Below are positions 3,065 through 43,037 of a stretch of 44,350 nt of DNA, piece after piece. Location: UHGV virus genome UHGV-0187309. One strand, given 5' to 3'. Within the stretch, counting starts at the first letter, position 1. Every line of letters begins with the position of its first letter. The DNA is from a virus. The translations under genes were made by a program, and so were the position numbers. Below the pieces are notes generated by a model. The model made no database searches. It saw only the letters and a list, made by a program, of their open reading frames with translations, and had not been told where the DNA came from.

Positions 3065-3955
3065 TTACTCCTCATCGTCCTCGTGCATGACTTCATATCG
3101 CTTGATATCTCTCTTGCTTGCAATGGAAGCGGGTTCAAGGATACCGAGAACGCGCCCGATCAGAGTGACATTGTCATATTCTGTGAATGTCATGGTATCA
3201 TACTTATCATTAAACGATACCAGACCTTCTTCCTCATATATCTTTATGTATGTACTGTTTCCAACCATGAAAGCGCCGACCTCATCGTATTGCAGCTCCG
3301 GACAGCCGGGATACTTCTCCACAAGAACAAGGTCGCCGTCATGATACTCAGGCTCCATACTGTCGCCGTTGACAGGAAACACAAGGTCTGCCTGCCGTAT
3401 TGCTGTGTTCGTATTCGGATACAGATAGATCGGTGTTCCGTTGTCCTCAAACTCCGCCCCGCCGTCAAAGCCTGCTGCAAGCCCCTTGTCGCAGAGTGTC
3501 AGTTTGATGATCTCCGGGAAGCTGCCGACAGTCTCTGCCGCTTCAAGCGAGGATAGCAGACTGTCCATTGCAAGCTGGTGCGGATACGACAGTCCACGGT
3601 ATCTCTCTACCATAGACTTTTCCTTATCAGTATAGGTATCTTGCTTGTTTTCGATGCCATATAGTTCATACAGCGTGATACCAAGTGCGTCACATAGCTT
3701 AGGAACAACGCTGAAATCCGGGCGGGTTCTTCCGTTCTCCCAGTTACTGATAGCATTTGAGGTCACGCCGATTTTTTCTGCAATCACTTTCTGATCTAAT
3801 TTTAGACGCTCCCTGTAGTATTTGATGCGACCGCCAACCGCGTGAGCGTCCTTACGGTGGGCAGGATCAGAGATGTTACTCTTAATATCCTTGCCTCCCT
3901 GTGAGACTGAGATATTCGGTTTCTTACGCTGTTTCATTACAAAGCTCTCCTTCAA
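3065..3955 (-). CDS. Phage CI/LexA-like repressor (XRE-type HTH plus S24 peptidase domain)
   Basis: 296 aa; N-terminal HTH (QKVIAEKIGVTSNAISNWENGRTRP), C-terminal S24 signature GDSMEP and a downstream Lys; divergent from the next gene with intervening promoters. Confidence 0.9.
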   Translation of the reverse strand: MKESFVMKQRKKPNISVSQGGKDIKSNISDPAHRKDAHAVGGRIKYYRERLKLDQKVIAEKIGVTSNAISNWENGRTRPDFSVVPKLCDALGITLYELYGIENKQDTYTDKEKSMVERYRGLSYPHQLAMDSLLSSLEAAETVGSFPEIIKLTLCDKGLAAGFDGGAEFEDNGTPIYLYPNTNTAIRQADLVFPVNGDSMEPEYHDGDLVLVEKYPGCPELQYDEVGAFMVGNSTYIKIYEEEGLVSFNDKYDTMTFTEYDNVTLIGRVLGILEPASIASKRDIKRYEVMHEDDEE

Positions 3956-4097
3956 GAATGTATGGGATAGTCAATCCTCAAAACGAACAAATATTCTTAT
4001 TGAAATCTGTGCAACCCTACAAAGTTTATCAAAGACTTTTCAACGCTGAAAACGTTAGAAATGCGAAATTTGGCGTAGGCATTGCATCTTTGATCAC

Positions 4098-4126
4098 ATT
4101 ATAGCACACAATCGGTGTTTTGTCAA
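4098..4126 (-). promoter_or_regulatory. Repressor promoter (TTGACA-17-TATAAT on minus strand)
   Basis: Reverse complement of 4098-4126 reads TTGACA, 17 nt, TATAAT with TGn extended -10. Confidence 0.6.
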
Positions 4127-4131
4127 TACAA

Positions 4132-4147
4132 AATTGCACTTGCAATT
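4132..4147. promoter_or_regulatory. Palindromic candidate operator AATTGCA-CT-TGCAATT overlapping the -35 of the rightward promoter
   Basis: Perfect 7 bp inverted repeat with 2 bp centre, located between the two divergent promoters. Confidence 0.5.
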
Positions 4148-4168
4148 CGTTTGACGGTGTGATATAAT
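4140..4168 (+). promoter_or_regulatory. Rightward promoter (TTGCAA-17-TATAAT) for the ImmA-like gene
   Basis: TTGCAA at 4140-4145, 17 nt spacer, TATAAT at 4163-4168; about 200 nt leader before ATG at 4370. Confidence 0.55.
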
Positions 4169-4369
4169 AGCAATGTCGGTATTCCGCCTACAGGAAAATG
4201 AGACCGAAGGCTGGTGCAGTGTGTCCGTCTTAAGGTGTGTGACAGGACAGACTGCCGGTCAGAGTACCGACAACTTCGCCATCAACCCACTTCGCCACGA
4301 TAGATATACAGAACAATAGAATGGAGCTAATGTTGGAAATACCATAAGTTGCGAAACAGGAGGGCGTAA

Positions 4370-6298
4370 ATGACTATATATCTTGATAGAGGACCGTTTC
4401 TCACCATTCCCGACAAGCTGCATTCGGGGCAGTACAGAGTGATCCGCAACCCCGACTGGCACGGAGTACTGCCGGAGATCGTGTCCTTCACCGATTTTCT
4501 CAAATGGAATTACACACTGGAGTATGGTCAGTATATCCGCAAATTGCACTACTACCACCAGCTTCCGCTGCCGTGGGTCGTTCCACAGGATGCCGAGATA
4601 GAAACTGTCATCATCGAGGAAGGCAGATATGACCGCATTGATCACAATTCCTTTGATATGTATGTGATATGCGATGTCGTGTTCGAGATGAACGGCTGCC
4701 GGCAGTGCCAGAAGTATATCGTACACGGCTTTTACTGCTCTTACGGCGGTTCAGACTTTCTGTGCGGTGCGGAGCTCTACAATGGTCAGTTTATCCGGCT
4801 GAACAATCCCTTAGATGAGTTTCTGGTTCCCATCCTTTCAAAGAAAGAATTTGCAAGCATTGCACAAGCAATCATCGACCACTACTATTCATACAAATCG
4901 AATTATCCCTGCCGCATCAATACTGCTTCAATTGCAAAGGCAATGGGTCACGATATAAAGTATGCCAGACTGTCAAAAAACGGAAATGTCAAGTCCAAGC
5001 TGATCCTGGACAAGCGGGATACGACCGTCTATGATAAGGAATACAAAGCTGTCAAAATGCGGATCGACAGTCCTACGATCCTTGTGGACGAGTCATTGGA
5101 GGAGGATGAAGCGCAGAACGCCATTATTCATGAGTGCGTTCACGCTTACCTTCACAACCTCTTCTATGAGCTGCAGAGCTACTATCGGAAAATGGTCGGC
5201 AGGAAGATGCCGGAGTTCAATGACTACTTCTATTCCAAGACGCAGCGTAGCTGCCTGAAATGGATGGAAACACAGGCAAATGCCATCCCACGCTTTATTC
5301 AGATGCCGGAGGAGCAGGCATCCGATGTCATCCTGAACTTCTTCGAGCGACTCCCCGGAGAGCCTGACTGGGACGATTACAGAGAACTGATCGACCTTGT
5401 GAAATGGAAGTTCGGAGTATCCCGCAATGCTGCGAAGAAGCGTATCATTGAGCTTGGCTGGCCGGAGGTGCGCGGTGTGTATGTCTACAACACCACAGGA
5501 TATGTTGAGGACTACGATGTAGAGCTAAGATTCCCGCAGGACTATACCTATACACTGTCATTCCGCCAAATCTCTGATGTGTTTGCATCCTGCGAGACCT
5601 TCGCAGAGCTTGTCCGTTCCAAGAAGTTCATCTATCTGGACGGTCATGTTGTGATCAACAGCGACAGGTATATCCGCAAGGAACACGGCTTAGCTATGGG
5701 CTTGACAGAGTATGCTAGACACCACATGGCAGAGTGCTGTCTGGATTTCAAGCGTATCTACGCAGAATTCGACTACAGCTATACCTATGGCGAGCTACAC
5801 AAGGATGACCTGACCGAGATCACGGCCGAAAACCGTTCGTTCAGCGATGAACAGCGAAAGAAGATCCGCATGGCAATGTATGAGATCACAGAAGAAAACT
5901 ATAAACTGACCGTTCCTTCAGATGTCAACGAATTCGGCAAGGCGGTGCGTTTCCATATGGAGAGATGCGGTCTCACCTCGGATCTGGTTGCAGACCGCAG
6001 CGGCATGGGTGTGAACACTGTCAATAAGATGCGCAGTGGCAAGAGAGTGAAGCTCGAAACAGTGCTAGCTTTTTGTGTCGCTTTGGAGCTTGAAGAGTCG
6101 TTCCGCATTGACCTTATGCAGAAAGCGAAGGTTGATTATGATATGAGCAATCCTGCCCATCGGCTCTATGTCACGATCTTTGAGCTGATGCCGAAGGCAA
6201 ATGTCTTTCAGATCAACGATCTGCTGAAGGCAGAAGGCTTTACGCCGTGGACGAGGGACTGCGAGGAAAAGAAGCGGTATGCTAAGAAAAGTATGTAA
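4370..6298 (+). CDS. Large ImmA/IrrE-like HExxH metallopeptidase-domain protein with C-terminal XRE-type HTH
   Basis: 642 aa; HExxH in IIHECVHAYLH; C-terminal HTH-like segment RSGMGVNTVNKMRSGKRVKLETVLAFCVALEL; AGGAGGG RBS. Confidence 0.8.
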   Translation: MTIYLDRGPFLTIPDKLHSGQYRVIRNPDWHGVLPEIVSFTDFLKWNYTLEYGQYIRKLHYYHQLPLPWVVPQDAEIETVIIEEGRYDRIDHNSFDMYVICDVVFEMNGCRQCQKYIVHGFYCSYGGSDFLCGAELYNGQFIRLNNPLDEFLVPILSKKEFASIAQAIIDHYYSYKSNYPCRINTASIAKAMGHDIKYARLSKNGNVKSKLILDKRDTTVYDKEYKAVKMRIDSPTILVDESLEEDEAQNAIIHECVHAYLHNLFYELQSYYRKMVGRKMPEFNDYFYSKTQRSCLKWMETQANAIPRFIQMPEEQASDVILNFFERLPGEPDWDDYRELIDLVKWKFGVSRNAAKKRIIELGWPEVRGVYVYNTTGYVEDYDVELRFPQDYTYTLSFRQISDVFASCETFAELVRSKKFIYLDGHVVINSDRYIRKEHGLAMGLTEYARHHMAECCLDFKRIYAEFDYSYTYGELHKDDLTEITAENRSFSDEQRKKIRMAMYEITEENYKLTVPSDVNEFGKAVRFHMERCGLTSDLVADRSGMGVNTVNKMRSGKRVKLETVLAFCVALELEESFRIDLMQKAKVDYDMSNPAHRLYVTIFELMPKANVFQINDLLKAEGFTPWTRDCEEKKRYAKKSM

Positions 6299-6312
6299 TA
6301 ACGGCATTTTCA

Positions 6313-6337
6313 GGAGGCTTTCGAGCCTCCTTTTTTT
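6313..6337 (+). terminator. Rho-independent terminator
   Basis: GGAGGCT-TTCG-AGCCTCC hairpin followed by TTTTTTT. Confidence 0.8.
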
Positions 6338-6946
6338 ATGCCCTGAAATATTTTCATGAAGCCCCCAGAAAAAATGGGGGCGATTTGCGTTTTTGAAATA
6401 GTTTAGAGACAGAATGTTCATAGAATATCCATTTAATTTAGATGATATGAACAAGTGAAGATGATATATCAAAGTTGAGATAAGCACAGTGCATAAAAAG
6501 CAGCCCCCATTTTTTATGTATGTAAAAGAAGATTCGGATATGTTATGATATAGACACGGTCAAGGACAGGCACCACCTTCCAAGACTGAAACACCACAAT
6601 GCCGGATGCATACGGCAGAGGATGTTCATATGATATCTGAACAGAATGCCATAGGTATACCCTGTGGTCGGAAGCCGATGTCATATGTCTACTCTGTGCT
6701 ATGCATCCGGCTATTTTTTTTGCCGCGGCATTCGGAGCATGGCAATTAGATCATTACATTTGTTAGTCAGGGCGCGCACTGGCGGACAGATGCTCATAGC
6801 GGAAATAACATCACGATTTGGAGTCTGTATAGACTGACAAGGTGTATTTCGTGTGGACATCGTCCCCTGCGTGCCTTTTTCTCTGGGACAGCAGTCGCGT
6901 TATGGGCATCTGCCGCTTGGTGTGTTCCTTGCAGAAAGGAACGATT

Positions 6947-7669
6947 ATGGAAAACGCAAATGTTCAGAATGCTGCCGCTATCACCGATAAGACCACCCTC
7001 GGCGAACTGCTTGCAATGCTTGACCTCGCTGATAAGGCAGGCAAGATGCCGACACCGAGAGAACTGTTTGAGACTGCCGGTTCGCCGATAGCCGATATGA
7101 ATGGCTGCACTCTCTTCAGCAACGGCTTCGCCATCTATCAGAATGTCACTGGGCGCACTGTTGTCTGGCTGCCGTACTGCAAGAGCTTCACCTATTACTT
7201 CGGCAAGCTCCGTGATTCCGAGAAAGACACGCTGACAGAGACCTATGAGCTGCCGGATGGATTTCTGGAAACACAGCCGTGGGTGATCGCAGTAACACTG
7301 ATCGGCGACCATCGTGTGGAGGCAAACAGCATGAACCGCACCGGCAGCCGCAAGGATACCACAGATTATGACAGCGCCGATAACGGCGATAAAGACGGTG
7401 ATGCAGAGGAGGCTTTGGCAGATCCGTATCGCAGGGCATTCAACTGGTATGACGGACGCATGGGCGAGAATCCGCAGGATGCCGTGGAGCGCAGAGAGAC
7501 ACGCGAGGAGATGCTTGCAGACATGACGGACAAGCAGCGTGAAGCCTTTATTATGTACTTCAGGGATGGTATGACGCAGGAAGAGATTGCTTCATATATA
7601 GGGGTAAGCCGTGATTCCATAAATGACAGGCTTGAAGGTGCTTTGAAAAAAGCAAAAAAATATTTTTAG
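6947..7669 (+). CDS. Sigma-70 region-4-like DNA-binding regulator
   Basis: C-terminal QREAFIMYFRDGMTQEEIASYIGVSRDSINDRLEGALKKAKK resembles sigma region 4 HTH; start at ATG 6947 (AAAGGAAC RBS) rather than the longer ORF start at 6842. Confidence 0.7.
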   Translation: MENANVQNAAAITDKTTLGELLAMLDLADKAGKMPTPRELFETAGSPIADMNGCTLFSNGFAIYQNVTGRTVVWLPYCKSFTYYFGKLRDSEKDTLTETYELPDGFLETQPWVIAVTLIGDHRVEANSMNRTGSRKDTTDYDSADNGDKDGDAEEALADPYRRAFNWYDGRMGENPQDAVERRETREEMLADMTDKQREAFIMYFRDGMTQEEIASYIGVSRDSINDRLEGALKKAKKYF

Positions 7670-7711
7670 GATACCCACAAAAAGACCTCTCCCACGACAG
7701 TATATGAGAGG
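7669..7711 (+). repeat. Copy 1 of a ~43 bp direct repeat (GGATACCCACAAAA-GCC-CTCTCCCACGACAGTATATGAG-GGG) containing a hairpin
   Basis: About 90 percent identical to 21496-21537; both copies lie just 3' of a gene end and are preceded by an A/T-rich run. Confidence 0.7.
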
Positions 7712-7806
7712 GCTTGAAAAGAAACCAAACCGCAAGCGGCTGCAAAGCCCTCGCAGCCGAACCATTATTACATCGGTCGAAAGACCTGAACAGAAAGGAA
7801 ATGCTT

Positions 7807-8169
7807 ATGCCTATGGAAAACAGAGTCCCGAAAAACCGCTACAACGGCGGTGCCGCAACCGATGCCGACAAGCAGGACAAGCCCGATGTGCTGAAGATGA
7901 TCGAAACGGCAATGGACAAGCGTGCGGCGGGCATCGCACAGACGGTCACGGATATGTTCCGTTTCATGTCGATGGCATCTGCCATGCTCCCGAATATGGA
8001 GATGGATGTCGGTGTGTTCCGTCTGAAGATCGACGATGACGGCATCTTTTTCGAGATCAACCATCCGTTCCGCAAGCGCAAGCAGCGTGATATCTCCAAT
8101 GACTGCTGTGCCGAGGAGCCGGACAACTATGATGATGACGAGGAGGGACTGATTTATGACGGAGACTGA
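7807..8169 (+). CDS. Hypothetical protein
   Basis: ORF 7714-8169; start placed at ATG 7807 after AAAGGA RBS; acidic C-terminus. Confidence 0.55.
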   Translation: MPMENRVPKNRYNGGAATDADKQDKPDVLKMIETAMDKRAAGIAQTVTDMFRFMSMASAMLPNMEMDVGVFRLKIDDDGIFFEINHPFRKRKQRDISNDCCAEEPDNYDDDEEGLIYDGD

Positions 8170-8664: not shown

Positions 8665-9912
8665 ATGCCGGATGTTCATGCACTTCTGAGTGCATCCAGT
8701 TCCAAGCAATGGCTTCACTGTCCGCCGTCCGTCCGCCTGCAGGAGAACTTTCCGAACGAGAGCTCCGTGTATGCCGCCGAGGGAACATTCGCTCATGAGG
8801 TCTGCGAGTACAAGGTCCGCAAGTATCTGAAGGAGCGTGTGAAACGTCCGCAGTCCGAGGAATATGACACCGAGGAAATCGAGCAGATCACAGATGTGTA
8901 TGCGGAGTTCGTGATCTCCATCATTGAGCAGATGAAGGAGAACGGCTGTGAGTCGCTTGCTTTTGTTGAGGAGCGTGTGGACTACAGCCACATTGCCCCT
9001 TCCGGCTTTGGCACGGCAGATATGCTCATCATCGGTAAGGACGAGCAGGGACGCGGAATCCTTCATGTATGCGATTTCAAGACGGGTGCAGGCGTGTTTG
9101 TGGATGCAGACCACAACAGCCAGATGATGCTCTATGCGATCGGAGCTTTAGCCGCCTACGGCTTTTTGTATGATATTGAGATCGTGCGTATGAGCATCAT
9201 TCAGCCTCGTCTGGATAATATCAGCACATTCGAGTGCAGCAGAGCCGAGCTTGAGGAATGGGGCGAGAGCATCAAGCCCATTGCGAAACTTGCCTACGAG
9301 GGCAAGGGCGAACAAAGCCCCGGCGACTGGTGTCGGTTCTGCCGTGCAAAGCCTGTTTGCAAAGCGTGTGCCAATGAAGCACTGGCACTCTGCCGTGAGG
9401 ATTTCCTTGACCTCGATGCCGGAGCATTCGATGATACTGCGGAGGAAAGCGATATGACCGCACCCTACGAAGCGGATATACAGACTGCCGTATTCAAGCA
9501 GCCGGGACTGATTCCTATCAGCGAACTTGCGGAGATCCTGCCGACTCTGAACCGCATCAGCTCTTGGATCGAGGCGGTATTCGCATTCGTATCCTCCGAG
9601 GCGATCAATCACGGTGTACCGATTCCCGGCTATAAGGTGGTCGAAGGGCGCAGCAAGCGTGTATTCACAGATACAAAAGCTGTGGTCGATACCGCTGTTC
9701 AGAACGGGTACACCGACCTTTACAAGCAGACGCTCATCACGCTGACGGAATTTGAAAAGATGATGGGCAAGAAAAAGTTCAACGAGCTGCTCGGTGAGTA
9801 TGTCGCCAAGCCACCCGGAAAGCTGGCACTTGTGCCGGAGAGCGATCCGAGAGAACCCGTTGATCTCACAACACCCGGTCAGGAATTTGAAGTTCTCTCT
9901 GATGATGAGTGA
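8665..9912 (+). CDS. DUF2800-like PD-(D/E)xK nuclease (Cas4/RecB-like) with C-terminal Cys cluster
   Basis: 415 aa; CDFKTG nuclease-like core and CRFCRAKPVCKAC Cys cluster; sits in the phage replication arrangement DUF2800-DUF2815-PolA. Confidence 0.8.
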   Translation: MPDVHALLSASSSKQWLHCPPSVRLQENFPNESSVYAAEGTFAHEVCEYKVRKYLKERVKRPQSEEYDTEEIEQITDVYAEFVISIIEQMKENGCESLAFVEERVDYSHIAPSGFGTADMLIIGKDEQGRGILHVCDFKTGAGVFVDADHNSQMMLYAIGALAAYGFLYDIEIVRMSIIQPRLDNISTFECSRAELEEWGESIKPIAKLAYEGKGEQSPGDWCRFCRAKPVCKACANEALALCREDFLDLDAGAFDDTAEESDMTAPYEADIQTAVFKQPGLIPISELAEILPTLNRISSWIEAVFAFVSSEAINHGVPIPGYKVVEGRSKRVFTDTKAVVDTAVQNGYTDLYKQTLITLTEFEKMMGKKKFNELLGEYVAKPPGKLALVPESDPREPVDLTTPGQEFEVLSDDE

Positions 9913-9985
9913 GGATCATACAATAATGCCGCAATTATTCTGTTTGGTGAATACGCAAAATTGAATGAAATATAGGAGGTATACT

Positions 9986-10601: not shown

Positions 10602-13487
10602 GTGGTGATTTTATTGAGCAGACGTGTACTTTCCATCGACTTAGAGACCTATTCGGATGTAGACCTCCCGAACTGCGGTGTGTACCGCTATGTTGAGGGA
10701 GATTTCCATATCCTGCTGTTCGCATATGCATTTGACGATGAGGAGACAAAATGCGTGGATATGGCCTGCGGGGAGCAGCTCCCGGCAGAGGTCGTGGATG
10801 CGCTGCAGGATGACAGTATTATCAAATCGGCATGGAACGCACAGTTTGAGCGTACCTGCCTTTCAAAATATCTCGGTACGCAGATTTCTCCGGACTCGTG
10901 GCAATGCACGATGGTATGGGCGGCATCGCTTTCACTTCCGCTGAAGCTGGCAACGGCTGCACAGGCACTGAAAACTGCACAGCAGAAGGACGCTGTCGGT
11001 GAGCGTCTTATCCGTTATTTCTCTCTGCCCTGTAAGCCCACCAAAGCAAACGGCGGCAGAACAAGAAATCTGCCGGAACACGCCCCCGAAGACTGGAAGC
11101 TGTTCAAAAGCTACTGCATACAGGACGTGGAAACCGAGCGGGATATCCGCCGCAGGCTTGAAAAGTTCCCCCTGCTCCCGCAGGAATGGGACTACTACCA
11201 CATGGATCAGCGGATCAATGATCGCGGTATCCTGATCGACAAAGAGCTTGTGCAGCAGGCTATTATCTGCAATATGGCAATGTCCGAAGAAATGACAAAA
11301 CGTGCATACGCTCTGACAGGACTTGAAAATCCGAATTCCGTATCACAGCTCAAGGGATGGCTTGAGGAGCGTGGCATTGAGGTGGATTCCCTCGGCAAAA
11401 AGAATGTCGCTTCTCTTATCACAGACCTCGACAGGCACAGCGCAGACGGTGAGGCTCTGGATATGATGAAGCTGCGGTTGCAGATGGCAAAGTCCTCTGT
11501 GAAAAAGTATCAGGCGGCAGAGAGATACATCTGTCAGGACGGCAGGGCGCACGGACTGTTTCAGTTTTCCGGAGCTCAGCGAACACAGCGCTGGTGTCTT
11601 ACCGGCGATCATGAAATACTGACAGATAAAGGCTGGCTCAGGCTTGATAATTGGCAGGGCGGTAAGATTGCTTGTTGGAATCCTAATCAGGAAATGGTCT
11701 CGTTCCAGAAAGCGAACGTATTGTGCTTTGAATATGACGGTCCTATCTACCGCTATGAGGACAAACGGATCGATCAGATCAGCACGCCGGATCACAAAAT
11801 GCGTGTAAAGAAACGGTATAACGGCGAGTGGACGGATGACACTGTTGGCAATATGGAAAAGTATCGTCCTTCTATTCCGTTTACCGGACGCAGACAAACG
11901 ATGCCCGGCTTGGAGCACGCAGAACTGAGGGTACTGGTGATGACGCAGGCTGACGGCAGCTATAAAGAAGATGGAATGCTCTGCTTCCATTTCAAGAAGA
12001 AAAGGAAAATAGAACGGTGCAAACATCTGCTCAGACAGGCGGGCATTTATTTCACAGTGAATGAATGCAGGACAGATGGAACAACGCAGATCAAGATTCC
12101 TTCCCGTGAGCAGCCGATGTATCTAAGAATGTTTCATAACAAGACATTTGGAATGTGGCTTCTCGATGAAAGCCCGGATGTTTTCTTTGATGAGCTTCGG
12201 TATTGGGACGGATCGCAAAGCGCCAAAAACAGTATCCAATATACCACAACGAACAAAGTGAATGCCGATATTGTTCAGGCTTTTGCTCATACAAGTGGTC
12301 GCTGTGCAAAAATGAAAACGGTCATCCGGGATAAAGAACACCCGAATTGGAGCGATGCATACTATCTCGATATATGGCTCACTCCGAAAAACTGTCATGA
12401 AATCAGAGTGAAGCCGACTATCTCGCAATTCAGCGGCAAAATATACTGTGCTGAAACCCCAACCGGATACTTCCTTGTAAGACGTAATGGTAAAGTGTGG
12501 GTAACAGGAAACAGCGGGCGCGGCATTCAATTACAGAACCTGCCGCAGAACCACATCTCTACCCTCGATGAAGCAAGAGAACTTGTCAAAATGGGCTGCT
12601 TTGACATGATCGAAGCACTGTACGGCAATACGCCGGATATCCTGTCACAGCTTATCCGCACGATGCTCATTCCGAAGGACGGCTGTGAATTTATCGTGGC
12701 AGACTTCTCCGCCATTGAAGCGAGAGTACTTGCGTGGCTTGCCGGAGAACAGTGGCGGCTCGATGCCTTCAAGCGTGGCGAGGATATTTACTGTGCATCC
12801 GCATCGCAAATGTTCGGTGTTCCGGTCGTGAAGCACGGCATCAATGGAGAACTGCGGCAGAAAGGCAAGGTCGCTGAGCTTGCCTGTGGTTACGGAGGTG
12901 GCAGCGGTGCGCTGATCTCTATGGGTGCGCTGGATATGGGACTGAAAGAGGATGAACTTCCCGACATCATTTCAAGCTGGCGCGATGCAAACCCGGAGAT
13001 CGTGAAATTCTGGTATGCCGTGGAGAAAGCGGCGATCGAAACAGTCAAGGACCACGCGGAAAGAACGGTCGGCAGGATCGGTTTTCAGTTCTCTGCAAAT
13101 ACACTGTGGATCGTGCTGCCGTCCGGGCGCAGACTTGCCTACATCAAGCCGAGGTTACAGCCGAACCGTTTCGGGCGTATGGCGCTGACCTTTGAAGGAC
13201 TCGGTGCAAACAACAAATGGACGCGCGGTGAGACATACAGCGGCAAGCTGACGGAGAACATCACACAGGCGACCGCCCGTGACCTGCTTGCAGAGGCAAT
13301 GCACCGAATGGAGCTTGCGGGACTTGACATAGTCGGTCATGTGCATGATGAGGTCATTTTGGAAGTGCCGAAAAGACAATATACGGTCGATGATGTGTGC
13401 AATATCATGAATCAAAATCCGAGATGGGCAGACGGTCTGCCCTTATCATCTGCCGGATATACCGGCAATTACTACTTCAAAGACTGA
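10602..13487 (+). CDS. Family A DNA polymerase (3'-5' exonuclease plus polymerase domains) interrupted by an intein
   Basis: N-terminal LSIDLETYS exonuclease motif; after conceptual intein removal RTQRW|SGRGIQLQNLPQN resembles the PolA TGRLSSxxPNLQNIP motif; downstream HVHDEV motif C. Confidence 0.85.
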   Translation: MVILLSRRVLSIDLETYSDVDLPNCGVYRYVEGDFHILLFAYAFDDEETKCVDMACGEQLPAEVVDALQDDSIIKSAWNAQFERTCLSKYLGTQISPDSWQCTMVWAASLSLPLKLATAAQALKTAQQKDAVGERLIRYFSLPCKPTKANGGRTRNLPEHAPEDWKLFKSYCIQDVETERDIRRRLEKFPLLPQEWDYYHMDQRINDRGILIDKELVQQAIICNMAMSEEMTKRAYALTGLENPNSVSQLKGWLEERGIEVDSLGKKNVASLITDLDRHSADGEALDMMKLRLQMAKSSVKKYQAAERYICQDGRAHGLFQFSGAQRTQRWCLTGDHEILTDKGWLRLDNWQGGKIACWNPNQEMVSFQKANVLCFEYDGPIYRYEDKRIDQISTPDHKMRVKKRYNGEWTDDTVGNMEKYRPSIPFTGRRQTMPGLEHAELRVLVMTQADGSYKEDGMLCFHFKKKRKIERCKHLLRQAGIYFTVNECRTDGTTQIKIPSREQPMYLRMFHNKTFGMWLLDESPDVFFDELRYWDGSQSAKNSIQYTTTNKVNADIVQAFAHTSGRCAKMKTVIRDKEHPNWSDAYYLDIWLTPKNCHEIRVKPTISQFSGKIYCAETPTGYFLVRRNGKVWVTGNSGRGIQLQNLPQNHISTLDEARELVKMGCFDMIEALYGNTPDILSQLIRTMLIPKDGCEFIVADFSAIEARVLAWLAGEQWRLDAFKRGEDIYCASASQMFGVPVVKHGINGELRQKGKVAELACGYGGGSGALISMGALDMGLKEDELPDIISSWRDANPEIVKFWYAVEKAAIETVKDHAERTVGRIGFQFSANTLWIVLPSGRRLAYIKPRLQPNRFGRMALTFEGLGANNKWTRGETYSGKLTENITQATARDLLAEAMHRMELAGLDIVGHVHDEVILEVPKRQYTVDDVCNIMNQNPRWADGLPLSSAGYTGNYYFKD
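11595..12512 (+). mobile_element. Intein (about 306 aa) within the DNA polymerase
   Basis: Begins CLTGDHEILT (block A-like), ends YFLVRRNGKVWVTGN followed by Ser as +1 residue (block F/G-like); flanking exteins rejoin into a conserved polymerase motif. Confidence 0.65.
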
Positions 13488-28350: not shown

Positions 28351-28582
28351 ATGTGCGGTCGTGACCGCTTACACAGAGATTTCTATGCTCAAGGGCGACG
28401 ATCTGAAATATCTGTATGACTATCTTTCCGGCTTTATCGGCAGACCGGTGTATACACACGAGATTTCTGCTGTGGTGATGGCTTACAGAGAGCAGATCAG
28501 GGAGGACTTCCTCGATCTGTGCAGGAACGCAAAGGAGGCGGATGATGGATCAGAAACACTTGACTCTCGGCAGCTTATTTGA
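28337..28582 (+). CDS. Small hypothetical protein
   Basis: 81 aa ORF from ATG 28337; overlaps both neighbouring genes; no recognisable motif. Confidence 0.45.
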   Translation: MTKHECAVVTAYTEISMLKGDDLKYLYDYLSGFIGRPVYTHEISAVVMAYREQIREDFLDLCRNAKEADDGSETLDSRQLI

Positions 28583-31145
28583 CGGCTCCGGTGGCTTTCC
28601 GCTTGGCGGCATCCTTGCAGGGATCGAGCCGAAGTGGAGCAGCGAAATTGAACCATTCCCGGTGCTTGTCACGCACAAGCGGCTGCCGCAGGTGAAGCAC
28701 TACGGCGATGTATCCAAACTGAACGGAGCAGAGCTTCCGCCGGTGGATATCATCACCTTCGGCAGCCCGTGTCAGGATCTGTCCATAGCGGGCAAGCGCG
28801 CCGGAATCCATGACGGTGATCGGTCAAACCTGTTCTTTCAGGCGATCCGCATCATCAAAGAAATGAGGGATGCAACAAATGGACGATATCCGCGATACTG
28901 CGTCTGGGAAAATGTCCCCGGCGCTTTCTCATCCAACGGAGGAAACGACTTCAAGGCTGTCCTCGAAGCAGTTATCGGAGTTAAAGAAAAAGGGATCGAG
29001 GTGCCTGCGCCTGAAAATCACAGATGGGCAAAATCAGACGTATATCTGGGAGACGGATGGAGCGTGGCTTACCGAGTTTTCGATGCTCAATACTGGGGTG
29101 TCCCCCAACGCAGAGCAAGAATCTACCTTGTCGCAGATCTTGCTGGTGGAAGTGCCGGAGAAGTATTATTTAAGTCCGAAGGCGTGTCTGGGTATACTCC
29201 GCAGGGCTTCCGTGCGTGGCAAGGAGCTGCCGGAGGTGCTGAAGAAGGCACTGGAGAGACAGGCGGGCGGTCTGACGCTGGAGGTGGAACCCTCTGCCTG
29301 AATACACAGGGCAACAGCGGCGTCGGCATCACCGAGAACAAGGCTCTCGCACTGGTCGCACAGGATCATGGCAATCATCCGGCTGTGCTTCATGCGGTCG
29401 GTATCGACGGCTACAATGCTGCGGTCACCGATGATACGGCAGCAACGCTTGGTGTGAACTGCGGAATGTCCACAGGCAGAAACGGTGTCCTGCAGGCGGC
29501 GGGATTTTCCACAGAACACAGTGCAAAAGCAAGGAGCATCGGCTACGAGGAAGAGGTATCTCCCACACTTCGAGCCGGTGTTGTTCCGGCGGCAATGGAG
29601 TTATATGAAAATCATGGGCAGGACAGCAGATTCAGAGGACCTTTGGATGTAGCACAGCCTGTGACTGCTACCTACGGCATGGGCGGCAACAATCAGCCGC
29701 TTGTGGTAGAGAACAATCCCACGGACGGCAGAGCGAAGATCAATCCCGACGGTGTGTTTCAGACGCTCTGCGGACGAGCCGGAACAGGCGGAAACAACAC
29801 GCCGCTTGTTGCTGAACCGGTCACGCTGAAAATCAGGTCGGGATGTGAGGGCGGTGGCAAGGGTGCTTTATGGCAGACCGACAAGTCTGCTACGCTCGGC
29901 ACAAACAATGACCAGAGTGTATTTGTTCCGTTCGTCAAGGGAACACGTCCGCACTCTGCTGAAGAGGGGCAAACATGGAAACCCGGCGAGGTCGCCAATA
30001 CACTGAATACCTTTGATGTCGGTGAAAGTCGCTGCAATGAACTTGTGGTGGAAGAGCCGCAGATCAGGGCTTTCGGTGTATGCAGCAAGCATTCCAATGC
30101 GATGATGTCCGACAATCCGCACAGCGGATTCTATGAGGCGACCACAAGCAGAACGCTCGACCAAAGTGGTGGAAATTCTGTGACATCGAATCAGGGCGGC
30201 ATCTGCGTGGTAGCACCTGCGCCTGAAACCTTCGATGTGCGTTTCACATCAGACGGTACAAAAAACGCTCGTGGGCATTGCTATCCGACAGACATCTCCC
30301 GATGCCTTGATACGAGCGAGGGATCGCCAGACTCGAATCACGGCGGTGTCGCTGTGGTGGCTCTTGAACCGGGGGCTGCATCACGTGTCGGCGGTCATGT
30401 ATACAGTGACGGCAAAAGCGGTACGCTTCGAGCCAATGCCGGCGATAATCAGCAGGCTGTTGTGGTCGCCGAGCCGGAGACCTATGCTCTGCAAGGCTCG
30501 ATGATCGGTCGTGCCGACAAGAACGGTCCGCAGGGTGATGGCATCAACGAGGATGTGTGCTTTACGCTCAATACATCGGACAGACACGCCATTGCCGCAC
30601 CTGATCCGTCCTTCACAATTTCCCGCGACAACCATTTTGCCGTTTCGGAGGATGTATCCGTTACAGCCGTGGCAAGAGGCCCTGCGGCAGTCGCAGCACC
30701 GGCAGACCACTATTGCACCAGTAAGAATTCGCATCATACGGTCGCCGCCCATGAGCAGGCAAACACGCTGGTCGCTTCCGACTGGAAGGATCCGCCGCTT
30801 GTGAACGACCTTCCGAATGACGAGCCAGTATATATCGTTCGCCGCTTGACTCCGGTTGAGTGCGCCAGATTGCAGGGATTCCCTGACTGGTGGTGTGCCG
30901 ACCTTGCAATTACTGATCCTTCCGATGAGGAGATCGCCTTCTGGACGGAGGTCTGGGAGACATGGCGGCAGGTCACAAATCCCAAGGGCAAGCCGAAAAC
31001 GGAAAAGCAGATCCGCAAATGGCTGGCTGATCCGTACACGGATTCAGCGGAGTACAAGCTGTGGGGCAACGGTGTCTCAGAGCCGGTCGTATACTTCGTG
31101 CTTTCCGGCATCGCATGGGCAGCGCAGAGAGATACACAAAAGTGA
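28542..31145 (+). CDS. DNA cytosine-5 methyltransferase with an unusually long, internally repetitive variable (target-recognition) region
   Basis: Motif I LFDGSGGF, motif IV GSPCQDLS, motif VI ENVPG in first ~130 aa; motifs IX/X (RRLTPVECARLQGFPDWW ... LWGNGVSEPVVYF) only in the last ~100 aa; ~600 aa in between with recurring TL-containing modules. True start may be ATG 28545. Confidence 0.85.
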   Translation: MMDQKHLTLGSLFDGSGGFPLGGILAGIEPKWSSEIEPFPVLVTHKRLPQVKHYGDVSKLNGAELPPVDIITFGSPCQDLSIAGKRAGIHDGDRSNLFFQAIRIIKEMRDATNGRYPRYCVWENVPGAFSSNGGNDFKAVLEAVIGVKEKGIEVPAPENHRWAKSDVYLGDGWSVAYRVFDAQYWGVPQRRARIYLVADLAGGSAGEVLFKSEGVSGYTPQGFRAWQGAAGGAEEGTGETGGRSDAGGGTLCLNTQGNSGVGITENKALALVAQDHGNHPAVLHAVGIDGYNAAVTDDTAATLGVNCGMSTGRNGVLQAAGFSTEHSAKARSIGYEEEVSPTLRAGVVPAAMELYENHGQDSRFRGPLDVAQPVTATYGMGGNNQPLVVENNPTDGRAKINPDGVFQTLCGRAGTGGNNTPLVAEPVTLKIRSGCEGGGKGALWQTDKSATLGTNNDQSVFVPFVKGTRPHSAEEGQTWKPGEVANTLNTFDVGESRCNELVVEEPQIRAFGVCSKHSNAMMSDNPHSGFYEATTSRTLDQSGGNSVTSNQGGICVVAPAPETFDVRFTSDGTKNARGHCYPTDISRCLDTSEGSPDSNHGGVAVVALEPGAASRVGGHVYSDGKSGTLRANAGDNQQAVVVAEPETYALQGSMIGRADKNGPQGDGINEDVCFTLNTSDRHAIAAPDPSFTISRDNHFAVSEDVSVTAVARGPAAVAAPADHYCTSKNSHHTVAAHEQANTLVASDWKDPPLVNDLPNDEPVYIVRRLTPVECARLQGFPDWWCADLAITDPSDEEIAFWTEVWETWRQVTNPKGKPKTEKQIRKWLADPYTDSAEYKLWGNGVSEPVVYFVLSGIAWAAQRDTQK

Positions 31146-39897: not shown

Positions 39898-40371
39898 ATG
39901 GCTCAGAGAGGCAGAAAACCGACGCCGACAGCAATCAAGGAACTGGAAGGCAATCCCGGAAAACGACCGCTGAATGATGCAGAGCCGAAGCCGGAACGCA
40001 AGGCACCGCCCTGTCCGAAGTGGCTGGAGCCCGAAGCAAAAAAGGAATGGCGCAGGCTGTCAAAGCAACTGGAGCAGATTGGTGTGCTGACCGAGGTCGA
40101 TCAGGCGGCATTCGCATCCTACTGTCAGGCATACGCACGATGGAAAGAAGCCGAGGAATTCATGACCCAGCACGGCACGATCGTAAAAACAAAATCAGGT
40201 TACTGGCAGCAGGTTCCGCAGGTATCCATTGCGCAAACTTATCTGAAGATCATGAACAAGATCGCAGAGCAGTTTGGCCTGACCCCGGCGGCAAGAAGCC
40301 GTATCACTGCCGGCGCAGATATGAAAAACGCTGCCGTTGACGATATGGATGAACTTCTCGGAGGTGGCTGA
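39898..40371 (+). CDS. Terminase small subunit (P27-family-like)
   Basis: MAQRGRKPTPTAIKELEGNPGKRP N-terminus and FGLTPAARSRI near the C-terminus; immediately upstream of and overlapping terminase large subunit. Confidence 0.8.
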   Translation: MAQRGRKPTPTAIKELEGNPGKRPLNDAEPKPERKAPPCPKWLEPEAKKEWRRLSKQLEQIGVLTEVDQAAFASYCQAYARWKEAEEFMTQHGTIVKTKSGYWQQVPQVSIAQTYLKIMNKIAEQFGLTPAARSRITAGADMKNAAVDDMDELLGGG

Positions 40372-43037
40372 TGGCGAGAACGGCAAAGGCAAGAGAAAGA
40401 CCTGCCAACTATCCGAAACTGAAGGATTATAAACCGACACGCTTTATGCTGCCGGAATCGCACTACGATGCGGCAAAGGCTGACCGAGCTGTGCGGTTCA
40501 TCGAGAATCTCTGCCATACCAAAGGACGCTGGGCAGGCAAACCGTTCTGGCTGCTTCCGTGGCAGGAACAGATCATCCGGGATATTTTCGGCATCGTCAA
40601 AGAGGACGATATGCGGCAATTTCGTACCGCCTATGTCGAAATTCCAAAGAAAAATGGGAAGCAGCTTGCACTGGATACACCGATCCCGACTCCGCAGGGA
40701 TTCACCAATATGGGAGATCTGAAGGTCGGAGATACAGTATTCGATGAAAACGGCATTCCGTGCCATGTGGTTGCGAAAAGTCCTGTGGATGATACAGAGC
40801 AAGCCTACAAGCTGACCTTCAAGGACGGCACCTCGATCATTGCCGGGGAAAGGCATCTGTGGAACTGTCAGTATATTTACGGCAAACGCAAGGATGTTCT
40901 CTGGACGACCGGCGAGATCTATCGCAGGACAACGGAATACAGACAGCGTTTTTCCGACAGACCACAGACAAAGCGGGATTCCCTTATCCGAATTCCGGTG
41001 TGCGGTGTCCTTCAGACAGAAGCGGCAGTTTTACCGATTGATCCGTATCTGTACGGCTACTGGCTCGGAAACGGTAATGTGACCATGCCGGAGATCACTG
41101 TTCGGACGGAGGATGTCGAGGATATCATCTCGAATATTCCGTATAAGGTACACAACCGTTATCCGCAGAAATGCGGCGGCAGTGAGATCATAAAGTACAA
41201 TGAACTGAAAGCAGTACTACTTGACAGCTTCCGTGAAAAGAAGATCCGACCAGAATATCTGAGGGCATCCGCAGAGCAGAGATGGGCATTACTGCAAGGG
41301 CTTATGGATTCGGACGGCTGTATCGGCGAACGCAAAGGGCAAAGTGTGTATGTCACAACGCTGCGAGAGCTGGCGCTTTCCGTCAGAGAACTGCTGTGGT
41401 CACTCGGCATCAAAAATGCAGTGAAATGTGAGCCTTCTACACGGCATGGGTGGCCGACCGGCGAGATTTTGTATATCGTCCGTTTTACAACCTTTGATGG
41501 CCAACCGACATCAAGGCTTAAACGCAAAAATACACGCACACAGGCGCGGTTAAAGGAAACTCGCTCCTGTTTTCATTATCTGCTGGATATTCAACCTGTA
41601 AATCATCCTGTAAAAATGCAGTGCATTCAGGTGGACAGTCCGAGTCACCAATATCTCGCAGGACCGTCATTTGTGCCTACGCACAACAGTGAGCTTGCAG
41701 CGGCAATTGCACTGTATCTGCTCTACGCCGACAACGAGCCGTCTGCTGAGGTCTACGGCGCTGCTGCTGATCGTGGGCAGGCATCCATTGTATTCGATGT
41801 CGCCAAAAGAATGGTTGAGATGACACCGGCACTTCTGAAACGCTCAAAAATCATGGCGGCGACAAAGCGTCTGGTGAATTACAGTAATGTTGGCTTTTAT
41901 CAGGTGCTTTCAGCGGAAGTCGGTACAAAGCACGGATTGAATGTATCCGGTCTGGTTTTGGATGAACTTCATGCCCAACCGAACCGCAGCCTTGTGGATG
42001 TTCTCACAAAGGGTTCCGGTGATGCCCGTACTCAGCCGCTGTACTTCCTGATCACAACCGCCGGAACGGATCGCAACAGCATCTGCTACGAGTATCACAC
42101 GAAAGCAAAAGATATTCTGGACGGCAGGCGCATTGATCCGTCCTTCTATCCTGTGATCTACGGCTTGAACGATGATGACGACTGGAACGCAGAGGAGTCA
42201 TGGTATAAGGCAAATCCCTCGCTCGGATACACTATCGCCATCGACCGAGTCCGCGATGCTCACCGGGAAGCCCTTACAAATCCCGCTGAAGAAAATGTAT
42301 TCCGTCAGCTGAGGCTTGACCAGTGGGTAGGCAGTGCGGTGGCATGGATTCCGGAGCATATCTACGACAGGGGCAATCTTCCGATCGACCTCGAAAAGCT
42401 CCGGGGACGGGAGTGCTACGCAGGTCTTGACCTATCCAGCACATCGGATATCACGGCATTTGTGCTGGTGTTCCCTCCGCTGCATGACGGCGAGAAATAC
42501 ATCGTTGTCCCGCACTTCTGGCTGCCGAGAGAAACGCTCGATTTGCGAGTACGGCGAGACCATGTTCCCTACGATGTATGGGAGCGCATGGGATTATTTC
42601 ATATCACCGAGGGCAATGTGGTCGATTACAATTTCGTGCGGAAAACGATCAACGAGCTGCACACGATGTACAACATCAAGGAAATTGCTGCCGACCGCTG
42701 GAATGCCACACAGCTTATCACAGACCTTGAGGGAGACGGATTTACCGTTGTTCCGATGGGTATGGGCTTCAAGGATATGTCCCCGCCGATGAAGGAACTG
42801 TACAAGCTCATACTCGAGGGGCAGTTTATCCACGGCGGCAACCCTGTACTCCGCTGGATGGCAGGAAATGTGGTCGCTGAAATTGATGCAGCGGAGAACA
42901 TCAAACCAAGTAAAAAGAAAAGTACAGAAAAGATTGACGGTATCGTGGCATGGATCATGGCACTTGACCGCTGCATCCGCCACGAAATGCAGGGCAGTGT
43001 CTATGACGAACCCGGCCACGATCTTGTGGTCATCTGA
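40371..43037 (+). CDS. Terminase large subunit interrupted by an intein in the Walker A P-loop
   Basis: N-extein ends YVEIPKKNGK and C-extein resumes SELAAAIALYLLYADNEPSAEVYGAA, together restoring PKKNGKS; downstream VLDELH Walker B and nuclease domain. Confidence 0.9.
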   Translation: MARTAKARERPANYPKLKDYKPTRFMLPESHYDAAKADRAVRFIENLCHTKGRWAGKPFWLLPWQEQIIRDIFGIVKEDDMRQFRTAYVEIPKKNGKQLALDTPIPTPQGFTNMGDLKVGDTVFDENGIPCHVVAKSPVDDTEQAYKLTFKDGTSIIAGERHLWNCQYIYGKRKDVLWTTGEIYRRTTEYRQRFSDRPQTKRDSLIRIPVCGVLQTEAAVLPIDPYLYGYWLGNGNVTMPEITVRTEDVEDIISNIPYKVHNRYPQKCGGSEIIKYNELKAVLLDSFREKKIRPEYLRASAEQRWALLQGLMDSDGCIGERKGQSVYVTTLRELALSVRELLWSLGIKNAVKCEPSTRHGWPTGEILYIVRFTTFDGQPTSRLKRKNTRTQARLKETRSCFHYLLDIQPVNHPVKMQCIQVDSPSHQYLAGPSFVPTHNSELAAAIALYLLYADNEPSAEVYGAAADRGQASIVFDVAKRMVEMTPALLKRSKIMAATKRLVNYSNVGFYQVLSAEVGTKHGLNVSGLVLDELHAQPNRSLVDVLTKGSGDARTQPLYFLITTAGTDRNSICYEYHTKAKDILDGRRIDPSFYPVIYGLNDDDDWNAEESWYKANPSLGYTIAIDRVRDAHREALTNPAEENVFRQLRLDQWVGSAVAWIPEHIYDRGNLPIDLEKLRGRECYAGLDLSSTSDITAFVLVFPPLHDGEKYIVVPHFWLPRETLDLRVRRDHVPYDVWERMGLFHITEGNVVDYNFVRKTINELHTMYNIKEIAADRWNATQLITDLEGDGFTVVPMGMGFKDMSPPMKELYKLILEGQFIHGGNPVLRWMAGNVVAEIDAAENIKPSKKKSTEKIDGIVAWIMALDRCIRHEMQGSVYDEPGHDLVVI
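40662..41687 (+). mobile_element. Intein (about 342 aa) with LAGLIDADG-like homing endonuclease region, class-3-like features
   Basis: Begins QLALDTPI (block A-like, Gln not Cys/Ser at position 1), block B GTSIIAGERHLW, LAGLIDADG-like LLQGLMDSDGCIGE, block F/G MQCIQVDSPSHQYLAGPSFVPTHN then Ser. Confidence 0.65.

Follow-up and report, generated by a model that had tools for sequence, protein, structure and literature searches.

A predicted mobile intein with a nested LAGLIDADG endonuclease in the family A DNA polymerase of a prophage, a member of a phage intein family ending in Gly-Asn

How is a family A DNA polymerase (PolA) produced from a coding sequence that is interrupted, inside a polymerase motif, by a segment of 306 codons? 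This question is raised by an open reading frame (ORF) in UHGV virus genome UHGV-0187309, which we analysed as one stretch of 44,350 nucleotides (hereafter referred to as the window). The ORF matches Pfam DNA_pol_A (E = 3.4e-21) and PHROG 17, DNA polymerase (E = 5.6e-137), and an earlier note on this DNA had proposed that the segment is an intein with an unusual C-terminus. Intein-free homologues, homology to a family of inteins and the predicted fold bear out an intein interrupting the polymerase at 11595-12512. The reading that we favour, with a probability of about 0.75, is a mobile class-1-type intein with a nested LAGLIDADG endonuclease in a prophage PolA, predicted to splice and to home.

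The boundaries were assessed by comparison with intein-free PolA homologues, a check that the earlier note had suggested. The conceptually spliced 655-aa polymerase, used as a query, retrieved at least 120 proteins of 650-665 aa with 95-98% identity. In all of the 120 closest homologues, the segment is missing and the sequence runs on uninterrupted as ...RTQRW-AGRGIQLQNLP... (hyphens mark junctions), the polymerase motif being restored; none of these 120 keeps the segment as an integral domain. The DNA alignment to the empty allele of an intein-free prophage (L017) likewise breaks after 11594 and picks up again at 12516. The boundaries claimed previously (RTQRW, then CLTGDHEILT...KVWVTGN, then Ser) and the length of ~306 aa proved exact on translation, the last two intein residues being Gly305 and Asn306, followed by a +1 Ser (AGC, 12513-12515).

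The position of the insert within the enzyme can be specified precisely. The spliced junction motif (15 residues, TQRWSGRGIQLQNLP) is an ungapped match to T666-GRLSSTDPNLQNI-P680 of E. coli Pol I, which places the insertion point between the counterparts of L669 and S670, one residue past R668. The intein splits the TGR[L/W]-S...LQN[I/L]P motif of the polymerase (TGRLS...NLQNIP in E. coli Pol I). R668 of the Klenow fragment contacts the primer terminus. Because the insert sits one residue after the R668 equivalent, the unspliced precursor is unlikely to be an active polymerase.

An intein profile search, also suggested in the earlier note, gave no significant intein match from Pfam or NCBIfam, and in a phmmer search of the PDB the insert matched only the Spl DnaX mini-intein, over a short N-terminal stretch (E = 1e-3). 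The case for an intein is therefore made by the intein-free homologues, the family homology and the fold. An AlphaFold model of the intein, built with an alignment of its relatives as input, had a pLDDT of 92.7 and a pTM of 0.90. When this model was compared with the PDB by Foldseek, the 16 best matches were all inteins, led by the intein-borne homing endonucleases TliVMA (E = 1.2e-14), PI-SceI, PI-PfuI, PhoVMA and PI-TkoII; free-standing LAGLIDADG enzymes (I-DmoI, I-Tsp061I and I-WcaI) came next, with E about 1e-5 over ~174 columns. PI-SceI, PI-PfuI and TliVMA share the two-domain fold of the window intein (E = 1e-14 to 1e-8; template-modelling score about 0.6-0.69), whereas they are only 8-15% identical to it, are larger than its compact 306 aa and have His-Asn ends.

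A tblastn search with the intein found end-to-end homologues, 21-30% identical, in 334 phage records. The annotated hosts of these homologous inserts include RtcB, the alpha and beta subunits of ribonucleotide reductase (RNR), a primase/helicase, a PhoH/TOPRIM protein, a RecD-like helicase, NAMPT, a protein phosphatase and another DNA polymerase. Seven homologous inserts extracted from unrelated host proteins each run from Cys1 to [T/C/S]-G-N and are followed by Cys, Ser or Thr, and a 12-sequence alignment has Cys1, His67, Asp120, Asp205, Cys285, Gly305 and Asn306 as invariant residues. The segment thus combines an in-frame insert absent from orthologues with Cys1, a TxxH motif, a terminal Asn, a +1 Ser and a HINT fold; the penultimate His (G:6), common yet not obligatory in inteins, is replaced by Gly305. 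Its central domain has two LAGLIDADG helices in one chain, each ending in an acidic residue, and a fold like that of the solved members; among 176 family members (see below), Asp120 is Asp or Glu in 174 and Asp205 is Asp in 169. Judged by these residues and the modelled fold, the segment is an intein in which a LAGLIDADG homing endonuclease is nested, with splicing and cleavage as predicted activities.

In public databases, the assemblies of related prophages are often broken within the PolA intein, with contigs stopping within the endonuclease domain, and gene callers consequently give truncated 'polymerases'. In one such contig (L001, 7300-7487), the ORF ends at a stop codon 38 nt before the contig end, and many of the proteins P0001-P0057 are fragments. 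A split gene or a frameshift was considered for the polymerase homologues that break at residue ~480 and was rejected, as these breaks are contig ends or assembly breaks.

To describe the family, we used an intein-only hidden Markov model and took 176 complete inteins from 157 representative proteins; this sample consists mostly of 50%-identity cluster representatives from an exhaustive search, the rest coming from a profile search. Profile A1, run through a word-indexed database, added few distant members. The 19,653 raw matches of A2, the profile of the exhaustive search, were not used as the family size, because A2 included extein columns, which inflates its counts. Residue 1 is Cys in 170 of the 176 inteins, B:7 is Thr in 170 and B:10 is His in all 176. 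B:12 is Met, Val, Ile, Leu or Phe (Met69 in the window intein) and never Trp. Position F:4 is Cys in 171 and Asp in four, G:5 is Thr in 137, Ser in 26 and Cys in nine, and the last residue (G:7) is Asn in 172 and Gln in four; the +1 residue is Ser in 108, Cys in 45 and Thr in 23. A His within the last 25 residues occurs in 56 of the 176, the window intein having none. Many proteins carry two or three family inteins (34 of the 140 proteins having complete copies).

The penultimate residue (G:6) is Gly in 172 of the 176 inteins. Thus, Gly305 is real, as the earlier note had it, and what did not hold was its description as unusual: by the family alignment, the Gly-Asn end is a near-invariant trait of a large phage intein family and no oddity of the window copy. 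It has also been studied in a homologue, the intein in the recombination directionality factor (RDF; gp51, a metallophosphoesterase) of phage Bethlehem. This intein is homologous to the window intein from block B to the C-terminus (BLASTP E = 1e-10), and both consist of a HINT domain plus a LAGLIDADG endonuclease, are about 310 aa long and start with Cys1. The Bethlehem intein likewise has Cys at F:4 (...VWCLRV...) and ends in ...VWCLRVPNGRFFIEDGGKIHLTGN-S (...LTGN-S). The two are only ~23% identical and differ in host protein (RDF phosphoesterase versus PolA); Bethlehem is an actinobacteriophage, whereas the window intein belongs to a Ruminococcus/Oscillospiraceae prophage. The Bethlehem RDF intein, filed under class 1, splices completely, its G316H mutation slows splicing so that precursor builds up, and its endonuclease is toxic in E. 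coli (Kelley et al. 2016, mBio, PMC5050341). The same study notes that conservation of the penultimate His is poor in the class 1 inteins of phages.

The residues at the N-junction agree with class 1: Cys1, Thr B:7 and His B:10 are all present. At F:4, where Asp is the commonest state in class 1, the window intein has Cys285; Cys is the second most common residue at this position (PMC4031507). Class 3 inteins, as defined by Tori et al. 2010 (PMC2807308), have no N-terminal nucleophile and have Trp at B:12. We rejected class 3 membership of the PolA intein on its Cys1 and on the missing Trp B:12, which is Met69; the other two members of the Trp-Cys-Thr (WCT) triplet of class 3, Cys F:4 and Thr G:5, are present. 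Features common to class 3 inteins (Bethlehem DnaB, M. smegmatis and M. chimaera DnaB1; Tori 2010, Beyer 2020) and the PolA intein are Cys F:4, Thr G:5, His B:10, a +1 Ser/Thr and an association with phages; the PolA intein is unlike them in having Cys1, Thr B:7, no Trp B:12 and Gly for His at G:6. Another intein with published features in common is that of the phiCbK RNR alpha subunit, which has Cys1 and a penultimate Gly and lies in a phage replication gene (PMC3556154); likened here by those published features only, it differs in its host protein and in its C-terminal Gly-Gln, an end seen in four of the 176 family inteins as well, and it has been linked to invertebrate iridescent virus 6 (PMC3556154).

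On this basis, we propose the following course of events. The 961-aa precursor would be translated as one chain, and its HINT domain, according to the model, would fold and join the two junctions in space. Cys1, aided by Thr64 (B:7) and His67 (B:10), would form a thioester at Trp(-1)-Cys1, and the N-extein would be transferred to the hydroxyl of Ser+1. Cyclisation of Asn306 would free the intein, Gly305 in place of the usual His being the normal state in the family, and an O-N shift would leave ...TQRW-SGRGIQLQNLP... in a 655-aa polymerase. We infer the thioester, the transfer, the Asn cyclisation and the O-N shift from the conserved residues and from the experimentally splicing homologue. The released 306-aa protein would cleave, at the insertion site, those polymerase alleles of related (pro)phages that lack the intein, and repair of the break would copy the intein in (homing), as its distribution and sequence suggest.

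The distribution of the intein was examined at the PolA site TGR[W/F/Y]-SGR, which is filled by a family intein in about 80 polymerases with exteins down to ~50% identity. We found it filled in 14 IMG/VR contigs, with inteins 62-68% identical to the window intein, in ~45 metagenome contigs (gut, rumen, marine and fermentation), in 22 representative protein clusters and in three of the 34 genomic loci examined. Thus, the site is common in public sequence data and widely occupied in metagenomes. The allelic inteins from metagenomes and metagenome-assembled genomes (MAGs) have the same insertion point and the same length, are 62-85% identical to the window intein and share C1...YCA.T...VTGN-S with it. 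They are unannotated, and the window exteins (TQRW) are from a lineage whose empty alleles mostly have a +1 Ala. The closest allelic intein, 85% identical, is that of Oscillospiraceae bacterium S32_Bin2 (L039). In the literature, searched with incomplete coverage, no report of an intein at this site of PolA turned up. Signs of mobility besides the occupancy of the site are that L039 is the only carrier among ~20 genomic relatives whose extein identity is 84% or higher, and that the GC content of the intein in the window gene is 45.8%, against 52.6-53.6% for the exteins.

The same PolA site also holds mini-inteins of ~140-153 aa that lack the homing endonuclease (the protein fragments P0033 and P0035, and L063 at about 3540-4000). 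They have lost residues 102-267 and retain every splicing block. Such mini-inteins represent the stage of decay to be expected from the homing cycle, and their retention of all splicing blocks is evidence that splicing itself is under selection.

The DNA around the junction provides a further indication of mobility. When the window was compared with four independent empty alleles, the bins of +/-50 nt had 80-86% identity, and adjoining bins had up to 96-100%; the ~50 bp centred on the junction is the only tract consistently divergent from all four. The residues private to the window near the junction are Q326 (-6; Asn in the empty alleles) and S332 (+1; Ala in 120 of 120 empty alleles). Every intein-bearing allele has a +1 Ser at this site. 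The codon AGC for Ser+1 is common to the window and L039, whereas the empty alleles have GCA/GCx (Ala; P0058-P0177, L017, L028, L029 and L031-L043) or, in a minority, TCx (Ser). With the +1 Ala of the common empty allele, there would be no splicing unless the +1 codon were converted simultaneously. The junction divergence fits a short co-conversion tract that arrived with the intein.

Several observations weigh against the reading of a mobile class-1-type intein. Pfam finds LAGLIDADG_3 alone in the insert, at E = 0.039 and under its cut-off, and NCBIfam finds nothing. The F:4 residue is Cys instead of the typical class 1 Asp and there is no His in blocks F/G, so the chemistry assisting the N-extein transfer and the Asn cyclisation would not be the textbook one. 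Instead of co-conversion, the divergence next to the junction could reflect an old haplotype, and a minority of empty alleles (L037, L044 and L066) has the Q...S protein haplotype with a TCx Ser codon. A divergent tract of ~600 nt downstream of the junction (versus L017), considered as a candidate for co-conversion, was rejected, because 120 proteins and four DNA alleles show ordinary polymorphism there.

Pro1 relatives of the window intein have a bearing on the mechanism. In five separate representative clusters of polymerase inteins from the same clade, Pro1 replaces Cys1, three at the window PolA site and two lying 4 residues upstream. They retain Thr B:7, His B:10, both LAGLIDADG Asp residues, Cys F:4, Thr-Gly-Asn and a +1 Ser/Thr, and have no Trp B:12. 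The one that we checked in DNA has the codon CCG in an intact 991-aa ORF on a 24.8-kb contig and is 40% identical to the window intein; scans of viral contigs and metagenome contigs gave no additional Pro1 relatives. By their sequences, these inteins fit neither the first step of class 1 nor the class 3 signature, and they either use another route or are inactive, because Pro is incapable of the N-S acyl shift.

These relatives enter into an alternative in which the PolA intein itself follows a class-3-like route. Cys285, activated by His67 and Thr304, would attack the N-junction first, giving a branched thioester at block F before transfer to Ser+1, and Cys1 would be dispensable or merely an alternative entry point. 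Cys F:4, His B:10 and Thr G:5, which constitute the catalytic triad of class 3 inteins (Beyer et al. 2020, PMC7664689), are indeed conserved in 171, 176 and 137 (plus 26 with Ser) of the 176 inteins, and the +1 residue is mostly Ser/Thr, as in class 3 (PMC2807308); the existence of the Pro1 clusters, as well as the mention by Tori et al. 2010 of three WCT-triplet inteins that start with Ser or Cys (PMC2807308), also point this way. However, Cys1 and Thr B:7 are each retained in all but six of the 176, while the Trp B:12 that class 3 requires for N-terminal activation (PMC2807308) is found in none, the homologous RDF intein was put in class 1 (PMC5050341), and no sequence similarity is detectable to the genuine class 3 intein of the same window (see below). 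Possession of the trio is also no proof of its use, because a WCT triplet grafted onto a class 1 intein led to cleavage and no splicing (PMC7664689). We therefore keep the class-3-like route as a live, though unlikely, alternative. A related proposition, that the family is mechanistically intermediate between classes 1 and 3 with Cys285 as a working nucleophile or relay, is suggested by the invariant trio together with the loss of His from blocks F/G; we hold it as tentative, with odds well below even.

Two further alternatives concern the state of the element rather than its chemistry. The intein might be decaying or inactive, its endonuclease no longer cutting or its splicing impaired, so that the polymerase is inactivated or the element merely persists. 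The rarity of the allele among close relatives, the +1 Ala that makes most related prophages unable to host the intein, and the endonuclease-less derivatives, which record the loss of the endonuclease in some lineages, would agree with this. Against it, the ORF is intact across 2,886 nt, the catalytic residues of both activities are the family consensus, and the polymerase exteins are 95-98% identical to intact homologues; moreover, the allelic copies, at 62-85% identity, retain all catalytic residues, which implies purifying selection. We consider decay improbable. The segment could instead stay in the mature protein, as an accessory domain integral to this polymerase lineage or as a fused free-standing endonuclease gene, which would sit well with the absence of significant matches from the standard intein profiles. 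This is contradicted by the present data, and we give it next to no weight: the 120 near-identical polymerases are without the segment, the motif interrupted by it runs unbroken in those polymerases as it does in E. coli Pol I, the segment has the HINT fold with Cys1, TxxH, the C-terminal Asn and the +1 Ser, and the same module is found in at least seven unrelated host proteins. A mobile class-1-type intein accordingly remains our preferred reading.

Table 1. Coordinates of the PolA intein, its host gene and related features (window positions unless another locus is named)
Feature	Coordinates	Strand	Remarks
Family A DNA polymerase precursor ORF, intein inside	10602-13487	+	Single uninterrupted ORF, 961 aa + stop
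N-extein, 331 aa, ends ...FSGAQRTQRW	10602-11594	+	Aligns with intein-free alleles to base 11594
Junction-proximal extein DNA, about -22 to +27 nt, presumed homing-site/co-conversion region	11573-12539	+	Divergent from empty alleles
Intein, 306 aa, CLTGDHEILT...KVWVTGN	11595-12512	+	Predicted HINT splicing domain with nested LAGLIDADG homing endonuclease
HINT N-lobe, residues 1-101	11595-11897	+	Kept in mini-intein variants
Cys1	11595-11597	+	HINT N-lobe
Block B, T64-P-D-H67 (TxxH)	11784-11795	+	Thr64 = B:7, His67 = B:10
LAGLIDADG homing endonuclease domain, residues 102-267	11898-12395	+	Segment deleted in mini-inteins P0033/P0035; I-DmoI-type fold
LAGLIDADG motif 1, VLVMTQADGS, Asp120	11931-11960	+	
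LAGLIDADG motif 2, FFDELRYWDGS, Asp205	12183-12215	+	
HINT C-lobe, residues 268-306	12396-12512	+	Conserved in family
Block F, KIYCAETPTGYFLV	12438-12479	+	Cys285 = F:4
Block G, KVWVTGN	12492-12512	+	Thr304, Gly305, Asn306
C-extein, 324 aa + stop, starts SGRGIQLQNLPQN	12513-13487	+	Empty-allele alignment restarts at 12516
Second intein, 342 aa, terminase residues 98-439	40662-41687	+	Inside terminase ORF 40371-43037
PolA-N + N-intein fragment, SRTGRY-CLAEGTKILV...	L051, 1702-3066		
Free-standing GIY-YIG endonuclease	L051, 3030-3932		Pfam E = 1.7e-6
C-intein fragment ...MRTYDIINAGPHNRFMANGRIVSN, then SGRNIQLQNLP...	L051, 3824-4975		
Pro1 intein (codon CCG) of the same family	L127, 5045-5992		Gene 4001-6976; Pro1 proteins of the sub-clade are P0249, P0257, P0258, P0275 and P0280

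Other arrangements were seen at and around the PolA site. In Lawsonibacter asaccharolyticus (L051, 1702-4975), and also in Ruminococcus sp. UBA3855 (L046), PolA is fractured at the same site by a split intein (Table 1). Family inteins apparently also occupy neighbouring positions of the polymerase motif, namely ...G-intein-SNLQN, PNLQN-intein and ...-CQN[IL]P (P0213, P0222, P0224, P0244, P0254, P0250, P0220, P0285 and P0243).

The window is a replication and packaging region of a prophage or phage, encoding a PD-(D/E)XK exonuclease, an Enc34-type single-stranded DNA-binding protein (SSB), PolA, a DUF932 protein, an SNF2 helicase, a D5-type primase, NrdD, a ParB-methyltransferase, a C5 methylase and a large terminase. 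Its closest relatives are genomes and MAGs of Ruminococcus flavefaciens, other Ruminococcus and Oscillospiraceae; among deposited phage genomes, there was no match to the region at the DNA level. The intein-free prophage L017 has a free-standing HNH_3/AP2 endonuclease gene (7629-8114) between its exonuclease and SSB genes, which is missing at the equivalent window position, 9908-9919. Thus, mobile endonuclease genes vary among otherwise collinear replication modules. The C5 cytosine methyltransferase (28542-31145, + strand; 867 aa) matches Pfam DNA_methylase (E = 3.3e-37) in three stretches, and its Gly/Ala/Ser/Thr-rich middle of ~500 aa is without intein hallmarks.

The earlier note had also pointed to a second intein, in the terminase, and had called two inteins in one window notable. 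The terminase intein is real. It splits the P-loop of the large terminase (...KKNGK-QLALDT...FVPTHN-SELAAA), and a Pfam LAGLIDADG_3 match lies at residues 303-369. It has Gln1, Trp B:12 (GERHLW), Cys F:4 (MQCIQV) and Thr G:5, which place it by sequence in class 3, and phmmer matched it to the solved class 3 DnaB1 inteins 6bs8 (M. smegmatis; E = 1.3e-21) and 6rix (1.1e-18). The window thus carries both a class-1-type and a class 3 intein. The co-occurrence, on the other hand, is not exceptional, as several inteins per phage are already documented: phiCbK carries inteins in TerL and in RNR (PMC3556154), and mycobacteriophages commonly contain them (PMC5050341). Sequence shared by the two window inteins was considered as a cause of the assembly breaks and was dismissed, there being no detectable similarity between them.

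The PolA intein is thus a real and ordinary finding, a member of a large, partly characterised phage intein family. For annotation, the polymerase is to be described as a 655-aa enzyme plus a 306-aa intein. As Pfam and NCBIfam miss a very abundant intein family, many public phage proteins probably carry a wrong length or the label hypothetical. In phage family A polymerases, the TGRxS...LQNxP motif is a recurrent landing site, for full inteins, for mini-inteins and for a split intein with a GIY-YIG gene, and in most related prophages, with their +1 Ala, insertion would be lethal unless the +1 codon were converted too. Three points retain interest: what the invariant block F Cys does in a family that lacks the block G His, the relatives that begin with Pro1, and the blind spot of the profiles. 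With its 306 aa (~140 aa in mini-intein form), Ser+1, Cys F:4 and no penultimate His, such a compact intein is a candidate for mechanistic work and as a tool, bearing on how Asn cyclisation and the coordination of the junctions proceed without the textbook residues, and the Pro1 relatives make this question testable. An intermediate mechanism, if true, would explain the survival of the Pro1 sub-clade without Trp B:12, and the window intein would be a handy Cys1-bearing member for probing it; the family could then be the class 1 stock behind the class 3 inteins, for which a phage origin has been proposed.

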